Notes under the pieces: generated by a model
The model's database searches: none
Told to the model about the DNA's origin: nothing
What the model saw: the letters and a program-made list of their open reading frames with translations, nothing else
NCBI GenBank assembly: GCA_050176585.1
Contig: JBFXHX010000024.1
Span: forward strand, 191 to 64,190
DNA from: Candidatus Binatia bacterium
GTDB taxonomy: Bacteria; Desulfobacterota; Binatia; HRBIN30; CADEER01
Reading direction: 5' to 3'
DNA length: 64,000 nt
Shown here: positions 54,750 to 64,000 of the stretch, in pieces
Numbering within the stretch: position 1 is the stretch's first letter
Layout of the letters: each line of letters starts with the position of its first letter
Position numbers and translations under genes: made by a program

Positions 54750-55670
54750 ATGGACAAGGTGAGATGCGCGCTAGTCGGATCGGGGAACATCGGCACCGAT
54801 CTGTTGTACAAGCTGAAGCGCAGCGCGGTGCTGGAGCCCGCGTGGATGGTCGGCATCGAGCCAGCCTCCGAGGGACTCGCGCGCGCCCGCGAGCTGGGAT
54901 TGAAGACGACAGATCAGGGCATCGACGGTTTGCTGCCGCACGTGATCGACGACAAGGTGCAGATCGCTTTCGATGCCACATCCGCCTACGTGCACCCGGA
55001 GAACTCGCGCAAGCTCACTGCATACGGGGTGCTGGTAATCGATCTGACCCCCGCCGCCATCGGGCCGTACTGCGTGCCGCCGGTGAATTTGAGCGATCAC
55101 GTGGGCGCGCGGGAGATGAACGTCAACATGGTCAGCTGCGGCGGCCAGGCGACGATCCCATTGATCGCCGCAGTATCGCGTGTGCAGCCGGTGGCGTACG
55201 GCGAGATCATCGCCACGGTGGCGTCGCGTTCGGTCGGTCCGGGCACGCGCAAGAACATCGACGAGTTCACCCGCACCACCGCCGAGGGCGTCGAGAAGAT
55301 CGGCGGCGCGAAGCGCGGGAAAGCGATCATCATCATCAACCCCGCCGAACCGCCGCTCATCATGCGCGATACCATCCACTGCCTCACCGAATCGCCTCCG
55401 GACCAGGAGGCCATCACCGCATCGGTCAACGAGATGATCCGCGAGGTGCAGAAGTACGTGCCGGGGTACCGGCTGAAGAACGGCCCCGTGTTTGATGGGA
55501 ACCGCGTCTCGGTGTTCATGGAAGTGGAAGGCCTCGGCGATTACCTGCCGAAATACGCCGGCAACCTCGACATCATGACGGCGGCCGCCGCGCGCACTGC
55601 CGAAATGTTCGCGGAGGAAATCCTGGCGGGACATTTGAAACTCCAGCCGGCGCGCGCGGAGGTGGCGTGA
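54750..55670 (+). CDS. dmpF: Acetaldehyde dehydrogenase (acetylating)
   Basis: 306 aa. N-terminal Rossmann [15 protein letters not shown]. Catalytic Cys in [12 protein letters not shown]. Collinear with DmpF/MhpF. Confidence 0.9.
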
Positions 55671-56704
55671 TGGATCTGCGCGGAAGAACAGTCACCCTTC
55701 ACGATATGTGCCTGCGCGATGGCATGCATCCGAAGCGCCACCAGATCACGTTGGCGCAGATGACGGCCATCGCGCGCGGGCTCGACGATGCCGGCGTGCC
55801 GCTGATCGAAGTGACGCACGGGGATGGCCTCGGCGGTGCGTCGCTCAATTACGGCTTCCCCGCCGAAACCGACGAGAAATACCTACGCGCCGTGGTGCCG
55901 CTGCTCAAGCGCACCAAGGTGTCCGCGCTGCTCATTCCGGGCATCGGTACCGTCGATCACTTGCGCATGGTGCACGAGATCGGTGTGCAGACCATCCGCG
56001 TTGCGACGCATTGCACGGAAGCGGACGTCGCCGAACAGCACATCGGGCTGGCCCGAAAACTGGGCATGGACACGGTCGGGTTCCTGATGATGGCGCACAT
56101 GATCTCGCCGGAGAACATCGTGCACCAGGCGAAGCTCATGGAATCGTACGGCGCCAACTGCGTCTACTGCACCGACTCGGCCGGCTACATGCTGCCCGCG
56201 GACGTAACCGCGCGCGTCGGCGCCCTGCGGGAGGTCCTGAAACCGGAGACGGAGATCGGCTTTCACGGCCATCACAACCTCGCCATGGGGGTCGCCAACT
56301 CCATCGCGGCGGTCGAAGCGGGCGCCAGCCGAATCGACGGCTCCGCCGCGGGGCTCGGGGCTGGAGCCGGCAACACGCCACTCGAGGTATTCGCCGCCGT
56401 CTGTCACCGCATGGGAATCGAGACCGGGGTCGACCTCTACAAGCTGATGGACGTCGCCGAAGACCTCGTCATGCCGATCATGGACCAGCCGATCCGGATC
56501 GACCGTGACGCGCTCACGCTCGGCTACGCGGGCGTGTACTCGACGTTCCTCTTGTTCGCCAAACAAGCGGAAGCGAAATACGGCGTGTCTTCGCGAGACG
56601 TGCTGGTCGAGCTCGGCCGGCGCGGCACCGTCGGCGGCCAGGAGGATATGATCGAAGACCTGGCGCTCGAAATGAGAAAGCAGCGGACCGGCGCGGGCGC
56701 GTAG
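55670..56704 (+). CDS. dmpG: 4-hydroxy-2-oxovalerate aldolase
   Basis: ATGA overlap with the dmpF stop. HMGL-like TIM barrel ([29 protein letters not shown]). C-terminal DmpG communication domain. Confidence 0.9.
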
Positions 56705-56794
56705 CGGAGAGCGCCGCGCTCCAACGCCGGCAGGCCGTTCCCCTTCTGTCGACTCCGGATGACGGTGTCGACGTTATGGATGGAAAGCGGAAGG

Positions 56795-57607
56795 TCAGAC
56801 GGAGAACTCGATCACGGCAGCGCCACTGCCGTACACCGGCCCATACGCGTGCGTCCGCGCGCTGCGGAAGGCGCCGCCGAGCGCCCCGAGAATCCACGAG
56901 AAGTGTTTGAAGCCCATCTCCGCGCGGGCTTCGCTGGCGAACTGCGGCAACGCCGCGCGCACCCGTGCCACGTCCGCGTGCTCGAGCAGGTCGATCATGC
57001 GCCGGTTCCACGCGTCGTCTTCAGGGCGCGCGATGCGGTCCTCGGCGATGTCGATCTCGTCGCGCAGAATCGAGCCGGATAGGCCGCCCACGCCGACCAC
57101 GGCCACGCGCCGGCCCAGCCCGCCAGCCACCGAGGCCGCGAGCTGTCCCAGCCGCTCGGTGGTTTCGGCGTTGTGGTAGACGTTGTTGGCCGCGATCACC
57201 AGCGGAATCTCGCCGCCCGGATTCAGGAAGTGGTTCGCGACGATCGTACCCGTATCGATCGGGAACTCGTCGTAGTCGACGCCCTTGGAGCTGACGCCCG
57301 CCGCGCGAGCGGCGGTGATGCAGGCGTGCGCCATCTCGGTATCGATGCGCATGTCGAACGGCAGATCGCCGTACTCGTACCAGTTCTCGTCGACGTGCAA
57401 CCCCTGCACGCGCGGGCGCGTCTGCCACAGCTCGTCCAGCACCGCGATCCACTGGGTGGAATAGAGGAGGATCACGTCCGGCCGCGCGGCAGCGAGGGCG
57501 CGCGCCGCTTGACCGTATCCGGTTGCGATATGCCCCCACGGCGGGTTCTCGGGCTTGAGCCGCGGCAGCGGCGAGCCCGGCACGAGAAAGGCGGCGATGA
57601 CCGCCAT
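56795..57607 (-). CDS. LigB-fold extradiol dioxygenase second subunit (AmnA-like, 2-aminophenol 1,6-dioxygenase alpha-like)
   Basis: 270 aa. ATG shares one nucleotide with the upstream stop (TGATG). LigB-type fold. Follows the catalytic subunit as in the amnBA arrangement. Confidence 0.6.
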   Translation of the reverse strand: MAVIAAFLVPGSPLPRLKPENPPWGHIATGYGQAARALAAARPDVILLYSTQWIAVLDELWQTRPRVQGLHVDENWYEYGDLPFDMRIDTEMAHACITAARAAGVSSKGVDYDEFPIDTGTIVANHFLNPGGEIPLVIAANNVYHNAETTERLGQLAASVAGGLGRRVAVVGVGGLSGSILRDEIDIAEDRIARPEDDAWNRRMIDLLEHADVARVRAALPQFASEARAEMGFKHFSWILGALGGAFRSARTHAYGPVYGSGAAVIEFSV

Positions 57608-62596: not shown

Positions 62597-62866
62597 CTTG
62601 AGTGCTTGCGCCGGTGGAGGAGCTCACGCGGCTTCCGCGTGATGGTGCTAACTACCGCGCGATTCGTGCGAGCGTCAACTCGTCGCTCCCGTGGGTGCGC
62701 GCCCGCGAATCCGCCGTGCGGCGTGCGCGCGCGCCGCGGTGTGCTCGGGATGCGTGCCGAGAGCGCGCCCGAACGGCGGCGCCGCGCAGCGGTCGAATCC
62801 GCTCGGCGGGCTGCGGCTGTACACGCCCCGCCGGAGTCGTATACAGACGTGGCCACGGAATCCGGG

Positions 62867-63664
62867 ATGCCCGCCGCTCTGAACTCCTCGCTGAACGCCG
62901 AGCTCGCCGAGCGCTTGCGCAACGCCTACAGCACGCGCCAGCCGATCGCGCCAATTCGCGACGAGCTGCCCGCGGGCGATGCCGCCGCCGCCTACGCGGT
63001 GCAGAAGATCAACACCGACCACTGGTTGGCGCAGGGTCGCCGGCTCGTCGGCCGCAAGGTCGGGCTCACGTCCAAGGCCGTCCAGAAGCAGTTGGGTGTC
63101 GATCAGCCGGATTTCGGGATGTTGTTTGCCGACATGGCACTCGGCGACGGCGAGGAAGTCTCGCTTGCGCGCGTGATGCAGGCCAAAGCGGAAGCGGAGA
63201 TCGCGCTCGTGCTGGAGCGCGACCTCATGCAGGAGAATCCCACCCTCAGCGAAGTGATCTCGGCGATCGCATACGCGGTGCCGGCTATCGAGATCGTCGG
63301 CAGCCGCATCGAGAATTGGAATATCCGGCTCACCGATACGATCGCGGACAACGCGTCCTCCGGCTTGTTCGTGCTCGGCGCGCAGCCGGTCACGCTCGCC
63401 GGGCTCGATCTGCGGCTGTGCGGAATGGTGATGGAGCGACGCGGCGAACAGGTGTCCGTCGGAGCGGGCGCCGCGTGTCTCGGCAACCCGCTGAACGCCG
63501 CGGCGTGGCTAGCGCGAACGATGGTACAAGTCGGCTCGCCGCTCAAAGCGGGCGACGTCATTATGACCGGCGCGCTCGGCCCCATGGTAGCGGCGGCGGC
63601 GGGCGACGTCTTCGTCGCGAGCATCTCGGGCCTGGGAGCGGTGCGCGCGGCGTTCGCCGCCTGA
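62867..63664 (+). CDS. 2-oxopent-4-enoate hydratase / 4-oxalocrotonate decarboxylase family protein (MhpD/AmnF/AmnE-like)
   Basis: ~265 aa from the ATG at 62867 (weak SD). FAH/MhpD-family blocks [42 protein letters not shown]. Confidence 0.75.
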
Positions 63665-63675
63665 AACGTGCAGTG

Positions 63676-64000
63676 ATGCCCGACATCGAAGCGCTCGCCG
63701 CGCTGCTCGACGATGCGGCGCAGCGCGGCACGGCGGTTCCGCAGCTGTCCGCCACGACGCCGCTCTCGCTCGCGGACGCGTACGCGATACAGCACGCCAA
63801 CGTGGGCCGCCGGCTGGCGCGCGGCGAGCGGCTGGTCGGCATCAAAATGGGGCTGACGAGTCGCGCCAAGGCGCTGCAGATGGGCGTGAGCGATCTCATC
63901 TTCGGCCGACTCACCGACCGCATGATCATCGAGGATGGCGGCGCGCTCGACTGTGGGCGCTACGCCCACCCCCGCGTCGAACCAGAGCTCGCGTTTCTCC
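63676..64000 (+). CDS. Second MhpD/AmnE-family hydratase/decarboxylase paralog (5' part; runs off window)
   Basis: ATG at ~63676, 12 nt after the previous stop. Same family blocks (GRRLARGERLVGIKMGLTSRAKALQMGVSDLIFG). Confidence 0.6.
   Translation, partial: MPDIEALAALLDDAAQRGTAVPQLSATTPLSLADAYAIQHANVGRRLARGERLVGIKMGLTSRAKALQMGVSDLIFGRLTDRMIIEDGGALDCGRYAHPRVEPELAFL

Follow-up and report, generated by a model that had tools for sequence, protein, structure and literature searches.

Gene content of the locus

The 64,000-nucleotide stretch of DNA studied here (hereafter the window), taken from contig JBFXHX010000024.1 of a Candidatus Binatia bacterium, carries between positions 54750 and 64000 a group of genes predicted to encode an amn/cnb-type pathway for the meta-cleavage of 2-aminophenol. 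Real genes were picked out among the open reading frames (ORFs) of this GC-rich window (0.64-0.73) by third-position GC content (GC3) and family matches, and their products were compared with Pfam, with NCBIfam models at their curated cut-offs and with solved structures in PDB. Contig JBFWZZ010000004.1 (221,579 bp; assembly GCA_050184825.1) provided independent gene calls as well as the sequence past the window end, and its calls for 54750-64000 agree with ours. The genes listed for this region by a first-pass annotation of the same DNA were all found again, with identical coordinates and strands, by Pfam, by NCBIfam and in the independent contig calls. The pathway genes, together with one gene inserted among them, are:

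54750-55670, + strand: dmpF/amnH, predicted acetylating acetaldehyde dehydrogenase (acetaldehyde to acetyl-CoA), 306 amino acids (aa); TIGR03215, 473 bits against a cut-off of 282; Pfam AcetDehyd-dimer, E 9.6e-64
55667-56704, + strand: dmpG/amnG, predicted 4-hydroxy-2-oxovalerate aldolase; TIGR03217, 562 bits against 286; Pfam HMGL-like and DmpG_comm; the contig annotation starts at 55670 (344 aa)
56795-57607, - strand: amnA-like, predicted non-catalytic alpha subunit of 2-aminophenol 1,6-dioxygenase; E 1.6e-107 to CnbCa (3vsg_A), 59.7% identity over 268 aa
57607-58554, - strand: amnB-like, predicted catalytic beta subunit of 2-aminophenol 1,6-dioxygenase; E 2.9e-169 to CnbCb (3vsg_B) and 6.3e-169 to 8ihg_A; 77.7% identity to CnbCb
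58565-58990, - strand: amnD-type, predicted RidA-family 2-aminomuconate deaminase; E 3.1e-56 and 65.4% identity over 133 aa to PDB 6izh (Pseudomonas sp. AP-3)
59678-60928, + strand: exported DUF1329/LolA-like protein, 416 aa; weak Pfam matches to LolA_like, E 6.8e-11, and DUF1329, E 6.8e-8
61124-62596, - strand: amnC, predicted 2-aminomuconate-6-semialdehyde dehydrogenase of the aldehyde dehydrogenase (ALDH) family; TIGR03216, 862 bits against 693; E 4.1e-220 to 4u3w, 3.3e-215 to 7bzv and 3e-214 to 4i1w
62867-63664, + strand: amnF, predicted 2-keto-4-pentenoate hydratase (FAA-hydrolase paralog); NF008461, 371 bits against 350; 59-62% identity to the canonical amn-operon hydratase
63676-64000 and on past the window end, + strand: amnE, predicted 4-oxalocrotonate (2-oxo-3-hexenedioate) decarboxylase (FAA-hydrolase paralog); best NCBIfam model TIGR03218 (dmpH)

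These comparisons confirm that 54750-64000, extended by 443 bases, holds predicted genes for all eight enzymes of the amn/cnb-type pathway. The pathway had previously been called complete, which is true when those 443 bases are included but not within the window alone, where the decarboxylase gene is cut; in the contig calls it is complete at window-equivalent position 64443 and encodes 255 aa. With E-values between 1e-56 and 1e-220 to enzymes that have been characterised, the matches cannot be due to chance.

In the reaction order of the known amn pathway (PMC3790839, PMC6742747), AmnBA, a putative Fe(II) extradiol dioxygenase with a degenerate alpha subunit, would open 2-aminophenol or a 5-substituted 2-aminophenol to 2-aminomuconate 6-semialdehyde, which AmnC would oxidise to 2-aminomuconate and the RidA-type AmnD would deaminate to 4-oxalocrotonate and ammonia. 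The decarboxylase and the hydratase would then lead from 4-oxalocrotonate to 4-hydroxy-2-oxovalerate, from which DmpG and DmpF would yield pyruvate and acetyl-CoA.

Ring-cleaving dioxygenase, deaminase and downstream enzymes

By sequence, the dioxygenase pair groups with AmnAB/CnbCab, and not with LigAB, gallate or HpaD enzymes. The comparison proposed earlier, of AmnAB/CnbCab against LigAB, came out on the side of the former: both subunits find 3vsg (2.9e-169 and 1.6e-107), LigAB and gallate dioxygenase are absent from the solved-structure matches of the pair at E<=1e-3, and the best LigB-family structure from outside the aminophenol enzymes is HpaD (8iq8, E 7e-6). The catalytic subunit also matches 7txy_B, the dioxygenase of the ARO microcompartment (E 2e-113). 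A four-way alignment places His13, His62 and Glu251 of CnbCb, which we take to be its iron ligands and which agree with the LigB pattern, opposite His14, His63 and Glu252 of the window beta subunit, whereas the same columns hold G, Q and E in the window alpha subunit and G, Q and D in CnbCa, both histidines being gone in each. The stop codon of amnB and the start codon of amnA share one nucleotide, TGATG (GCGCGCTGATGGCGGTCA), an overlap already noted in the first-pass annotation and read here directly in the sequence. This overlap and that of dmpF with dmpG, both typical of translational coupling, have been kept.

Classical clusters contain two RidA-family genes, amnJ and amnD (PMC3790839). 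When compared with the operons of Bordetella hinzii and Cupriavidus gilardii, the window RidA scores 68-74% to AmnD and about 26%, or no match, to AmnJ; its product should therefore be a deaminase by sequence, although the gene stands at the amnJ position. Its ATG start lies at 58990, and the mechanical ORF extends to 59011 from a TTG. In the case of the ALDH, each of the first seven structures matched is a 2-aminomuconate-6-semialdehyde dehydrogenase (E 4e-220 to 1e-212). Dioxygenase, RidA protein and ALDH are thus all nearest to aminophenol-pathway enzymes, which bears out the previous assignment of the cluster to the amn/nbz/cnb type. As for the lower pathway, hydratase, aldolase and acetaldehyde dehydrogenase score above their curated NCBIfam cut-offs, and the decarboxylase is 61-62% identical to the gene at the same position in the amn operons of Bordetella, Cupriavidus and Burkholderia.

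Genomic setting, layout and regulation

Housekeeping genes make up the initial 28 kb of the window (2-oxoglutarate dehydrogenase complex, peroxiredoxin, aminopeptidase P, MgtE, dihydropteroate synthase), which makes the amn locus chromosomal. The GC content of the amn region is the same as in the rest of the window, and all eight pathway frames are intact with a host-like GC3 of 0.79-0.86. When the DNA was compared with plasmids, dmpFG alone matched, at about 78%; 59 Ralstonia records at 90-95% DNA identity correspond merely to a 48-bp piece of dmpF.

Content and order had both been likened to known clusters. The likeness of content stands but the overall order differs, the genes forming five blocks on alternating strands and not one operon: dmpFG (+), amnD-B-A (-), the DUF1329 gene (+), amnC (-) and hydratase-decarboxylase (+). 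Pfam scans of 29-64 kb found no MarR gene, and comparison with the canonical operons found no AmnJ-type RidA. The absence of both is no argument against function, given that amnR and amnJ are likewise unreported in strains AP-3 and JS45, and that a divergent amnR with its operator and amnJ is a trait of the LB400/B13 subtype, not of all such clusters (PMC3790839). An Rfam scan of the whole window gave no match at the gathering threshold, and the promoters and terminators predicted between 53.5 and 64 kb were as many as, or fewer than, those expected from shuffling, an uninformative outcome.

The DUF1329/LolA-like gene, which the first-pass annotation did not contain, encodes a product with a signal-peptide-like N-terminus (MKHLASVKGLSLVLFVAVLSSGGGAALA). 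A paralog lies 4.7 kb further on (window-equivalent 65594-66829), with 84% protein identity and 84% DNA identity over the coding part only; the two bracket amnC, the hydratase, the decarboxylase and a split hydrolase gene, and their similarity ends at the ends of the coding regions. Around the insertion, a search for repeats and mobile-element signatures returned only short repeats at chance level. Pseudomonas putida depends on its DUF1329 proteins, members of an uncharacterised family, to grow on fatty esters, and outer-membrane and esterase roles have been proposed for them (bioRxiv 10.1101/2020.07.04.188060). It can be guessed that the protein encoded here has an envelope role, perhaps in the handling of hydrophobic substrates.

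The split hydrolase just mentioned, a PcaD/BphD-like alpha/beta-hydrolase gene past the window end, appears in the gene calls as two pieces (161 and 147 aa) and contains a perfect 127-bp direct repeat (window-equivalent 64867-64993 and 65094-65220; 3335-3461 and 3562-3688 in locus L081). The repeat is either a real, gene-disrupting duplication or an assembly artefact.

Relatives of the dioxygenase

One genome per GTDB species was scanned for relatives of AmnB (n=374), from which 80 loci (L001-L080) were kept and their neighbouring genes counted up to 10 kb from amnB. The best matches of the window AmnB are proteins of an uncultured proteobacterial metagenome-assembled genome (MAG; 90%) and of two Burkholderiales MAGs (89% and 87%), these being L001-L003, whereas those of other Binatia MAGs reach 80-82%; this hints that the module may have been acquired horizontally. 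The loci of the other Binatia (L025, L048, L077) hold amnB-amnA alone, with neither amnC nor amnD within that distance. A shared core is found in the closest loci L003, L004 and L006, where decarboxylase and hydratase genes diverge from amnC-amnD-amnB-amnA with no gene between amnC and amnD, the proteins of L003 being 74-87% identical to ours. An AmnD-type RidA occurs in 39 of the 80 loci and amnC in 24, and all eight genes come together in 3, so that a compact complete set is the exception. A DUF1329 homologue was found in none of these 80 other loci.

A separate observation concerns the genes following amnB-amnA elsewhere. In at least 35 of L001-L080, from Alphaproteobacteria and Burkholderiales, a Liv-type ABC transporter follows the pair and its last permease ORF continues without a stop into an AmnA-like LigB domain (e.g. 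L002 16415-18430; L008 15574-18687), an unusual fusion which in L008 extends further into a BD-FAE esterase domain, giving an ORF of 1037 aa.

Upstream neighbours and alternative explanations

Upstream of the pathway genes, hydrolytic and oxidative genes follow one another over 24 kb (29349-53741), and no regulator or transporter is recognisable among them. The run comprises:

29349-53741, hydrolytic and related genes: an amidase; a Meth_synt_2-like gene; hydantoinase A; an S-Me-THD-like gene (PF06032/PF20906); three luciferase-like monooxygenases (LLMs); two CN-hydrolases
29349-53741, further genes: three amidohydrolases, one a D-hydantoinase/dihydropyrimidinase (TIGR02033, 537 bits) and one AtzA-like (E 9e-104 to 4v1x); a class-III aminotransferase; an ALDH; a Mo-hydroxylase large subunit; a Rieske alpha subunit, whose nearest solved structure is the carnitine monooxygenase CntA (E 1e-36)

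From such neighbours it had been tentatively suggested that an N-heterocycle (hydroxypyridine, pyrimidine-like or similar) is converted to an aminophenol-type substrate by the Rieske, Mo-hydroxylase, amidohydrolase and pyrimidine/hydantoin genes and channelled into the pathway. LLM, CN-hydrolase, Mo-hydroxylase large subunit, metallo-beta-lactamase (MBL)-fold, AtzA-like and Rieske alpha genes do lie next to each other at 45.5-53.7 kb, mostly in the same direction, and the amn-like locus L092 also has a Mo-hydroxylase and an LLM. However, apart from those of the MBL-fold gene, homologues of these neighbours occur within 10 kb of amnB in none of the 80 related loci, and the suggestion is not supported; the L092 LLM is only 25% identical, and the CoxMSL-type Mo-hydroxylase of that locus, considered as an orthologue, was rejected at only 33% identity of its large subunit. 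Moreover, the large subunit in the window has no adjacent small or medium subunit genes and the Rieske alpha subunit no adjacent reductase, while genes of the LLM and DUF1329 families also flank the closest orthologues of the window's MBL-fold lactonase (see below) in unrelated contexts, so that they may stand here without any tie to amn. We therefore regard a heterocyclic feeder route as improbable. A nitroarene origin, in which a nitroreductase and a hydroxylaminobenzene mutase would provide the substrate and the genes would be the lower half of an nbz/cnb pathway for nitrobenzene or chloronitrobenzene, draws on the provenance of CnbCab, the closest characterised dioxygenase, which comes from a pathway of this kind. 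Among the window ORFs supported by codon usage, Pfam detected neither a nitroreductase nor a mutase-like gene, nor is there a catabolic-plasmid backbone, the dmpFG match being the sole one to plasmid DNA; and Burkholderia xenovorans LB400, which has amn genes without habA/habB, cannot use nitrobenzene (PMC3790839). It would be very surprising if this were the role of the locus.

An ordinary meta pathway for catechol or substituted catechols, with a LigB pair and a RidA protein that have no special tie to amino substrates, would equally employ dmpFG, hydratase, decarboxylase and the ALDH family, all common to catechol meta pathways. AmnBA-type enzymes have some activity on catechol, and the ALDH passes TIGR03216, the model for 2-hydroxymuconic semialdehyde dehydrogenase. 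We nevertheless give this explanation almost no credence: the dioxygenase has about 78% identity with enzymes known to cleave aminophenols, the RidA protein is 65.4% identical to a characterised 2-aminomuconate deaminase, the ALDH finds seven 2-aminomuconate-6-semialdehyde dehydrogenases first, and no 4-oxalocrotonate tautomerase gene is seen in the cluster, which fits a deaminase route giving 4-oxalocrotonate directly. On the other hand, the genes might be a cryptic or decaying mosaic of horizontally acquired pieces, which this organism does not express together as one pathway. The alternation of strands across five blocks, the lack of a recognisable regulator, an AmnB nearer to Burkholderiales MAG proteins than to those of other Binatia and the 127-bp repeat splitting the hydrolase gene just past the window would all suit such a history, yet eight intact frames with host-like GC3, conserved catalytic residues, a GC content like that of the rest of the window and the retained coupling-type overlaps in amnB/amnA and dmpF/dmpG make it an unlikely one.

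Several observations speak against a functional aminophenol pathway at this locus and have to be set beside the evidence for it. The decarboxylase scores 94 bits as the window fragment and 223 bits as the full 255 aa against TIGR03218, both below the cut-off of 350.55; no regulator or transporter was recognised for the amn genes, and the published MarR box (TAGKACGTATACGTACTA) has no match with three or fewer mismatches. The split, mosaic layout could reflect piecemeal acquisition. Finally, AmnB proteins about 80% identical to that of the window also have quite other gene neighbours, such as Liv-type ABC transporters where amnC and amnD are not nearby, and such variety means that high AmnB identity alone does not fix the physiological substrate. 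With these points included, we consider it very probable that the chromosome of this uncultured Binatia bacterium carries a functional-looking amn/cnb-type meta-cleavage pathway, its activities and true substrate being deduced from homology. Although the pathway is a textbook one, finding it here extends the predicted metabolism of the Binatia, a lineage known from metagenomes only, to the catabolism of aromatic amines.

A BxdA-like lactonase as a possible source of aminophenol

A second gene that the first-pass annotation lacked may bear on the origin of the substrate:

50056-50964, + strand: MBL-fold lactonase, tentative feeder enzyme; Pfam Lactamase_B, E 3.2e-17; HLHFDH motif kept

BxdA of Microbacterium LMB2 opens 6-methoxybenzoxazolinone (MBOA) and benzoxazolinone (BOA) to 2-aminophenols in vitro, and its Sphingobium homologues are required in vivo (PMC11297187). 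By analogy, the lactonase at 50056-50964 might open a benzoxazolinone-type cyclic carbamate and so supply the aminophenol. Aligned with its family, it shares the conserved HLHFDH motif and the His/Asp motifs further downstream, and it is 54-56% identical (E 6e-111) to P0076, a homologue from a Microbacterium bxd locus used in place of LMB2 BxdA. PDB 8x78 ('Glyoxylase, beta-lactamase superfamily II', 306 aa, 12 chains) matches the window lactonase at E 1.2e-121 and the Microbacterium bxd-cluster lactonase at 2.3e-136. Supplementary Data 5 of the BxdA study lists B. hinzii, C. gilardii, Burkholderia cenocepacia and Novosphingobium humi KACC 19094 with BxdA homologues at 61-66%, and about 60% similarity to LMB2 BxdA is its empirical bound for confirmed formers of aminomethoxyphenoxazinone (AMPO); by its identity to P0076, the window lactonase would fall in the 52-56% tier, in which the 'Deltaproteobacteria' entries stand at 52-54%, below the >60% group and above the <=48% tier (PMC11297187).

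Homologues 55-63% identical to the lactonase stand in or beside amn clusters at six loci, the genes of L082 and of a further locus, L083, having been located by tblastn:

L018: Telmatospirillum MAG
L070: Stellaceae MAG
L082: Burkholderia cenocepacia
L087: Bordetella hinzii
L088: Cupriavidus gilardii
L092: metagenomic contig

Among the 80 AmnB loci, two of the three complete eight-gene clusters include the lactonase, and amn genes accompany six of the ten BxdA-clade loci examined; the remaining four contexts, without amnBA, are those of N. humi, an aniline-dioxygenase-like cluster of Shewanella and two metagenomic contigs. Several facts weigh against a lactonase step in this organism. The gene ends 3.8 kb upstream of dmpF with three unrelated genes between; the protein belongs to a sister clade, at 54-61% to the aligned BxdA-clade proteins, one of which represents a validated genus; and its closest orthologues (78-88%) adjoin lepA/lepB, CoA-transferase or ABC transporter genes, not amn, in all four cases examined. 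A functional link between lactonase and amn genes in this genome, with benzoxazolinones as the source of the aminophenol, is on these comparisons plausible, if somewhat short of an even chance. It is with similar reserve that we raise the wider idea, which we regard as possible rather than probable, that lactonase and amn genes together would make a complete route from BOA or MBOA to pyruvate and acetyl-CoA, and that BxdA-family lactonases are more generally attached to AmnBA clusters.

Our literature search found no description of a pairing of BxdA-type lactonases with amn operons, and the main text of the BxdA paper does not contain the word 'dioxygenase' or mention a link to amn clusters (PMC11297187). 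The recurrent linkage is in our opinion a more useful lead than the pathway itself. If true, it would provide the downstream half that has been missing from proteobacterial benzoxazinoid mineralisation, and would carry this mineralisation over to the uncultured Binatia; soil Proteobacteria could then fully mineralise the benzoxazolinone allelochemicals of maize, wheat and rye, beyond the formation of phenoxazinones, and the wide spread of 'aminophenol' clusters, as seen in the 374 AmnB relatives among GTDB species representatives, would have a natural, non-xenobiotic reason.

Besides amn genes, BxdA-clade lactonase genes repeatedly have one to three BD-FAE/Abhydrolase_3 esterase genes at their flanks (L087 8028-12784; L088 10989-12869; L089 9064-9939; L093 1799-2779). 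In Shewanella sp. C32 a lactonase-esterase pair lies inside the aniline-dioxygenase-like cluster, with a glutamine synthetase (GS)-like gene, Rieske alpha and beta subunits, a reductase and a GATase. The esterase-flanked lactonases suggest a wider module for the release of arylamines from carbamates or anilides.

Comparison with known systems

The plasmid-borne cnb genes of Comamonas sp. CNB-1 (pCNB1), which encode a 2-amino-5-chlorophenol 1,6-dioxygenase (3vsg), provide the closest solved structures, with the same iron ligands kept and lost as in the window. Unlike them, the window genes are chromosomal, lack chloronitrobenzene upper-pathway genes and include a RidA-type deaminase. The deaminase of CNB-1 is CnbZ, which is unrelated to the RidA type. 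The ARO microcompartment locus of Actinobacteria (PDB 7txy; PMC10470539) likewise combines a two-subunit 2-aminophenol 1,6-dioxygenase with aminophenol meta-cleavage genes, but the window yielded no genes for a microcompartment shell and its dioxygenase is far closer to proteobacterial enzymes. The bxd cluster of Microbacterium (Thoenen et al. 2024, PMC11297187) is similar in its MBL-fold lactonase with an HxHxDH motif and in the predicted product, a 2-aminophenol; in contrast to the window, the genes that follow are not those of AmnBA but acyl-CoA-dehydrogenase-family, flavin reductase, VOC and M24 genes.

With amnBACFEDHG of Pseudomonas sp. AP-3 the window shares eight enzyme functions, the lack of any reported amnR or amnJ and a RidA protein 65.4% identical to the AP-3 deaminase 6izh (PMC3790839, PMC6742747). 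In AP-3 the genes form one operon read in a single direction, with that of the deaminase placed among those of the lower pathway, whereas in the window the deaminase gene lies directly upstream of amnB, amnC is apart from it, and the five blocks occupy both strands with an extra DUF1329 gene. The amnRJBACDFEHG type of B. xenovorans LB400 (PMC3790839) resembles the window in the adjacency of amnB and amnA and in the order of hydratase-decarboxylase and dmpF-dmpG, and differs in its MarR-type amnR with the MarR operator, its AmnJ-type RidA and its single operon. Finally, all eight proteins are 52-80% identical to those of the amnJBACDFEHG operons of B. hinzii, C. gilardii and B. cenocepacia, where a BxdA-type lactonase gene is attached directly to the operon and not, as here, set apart from dmpF by the 3.8 kb described above. 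The pathway is therefore one already known from Pseudomonas, Burkholderia and Comamonas, and what is unusual is its split layout in an uncultured lineage.

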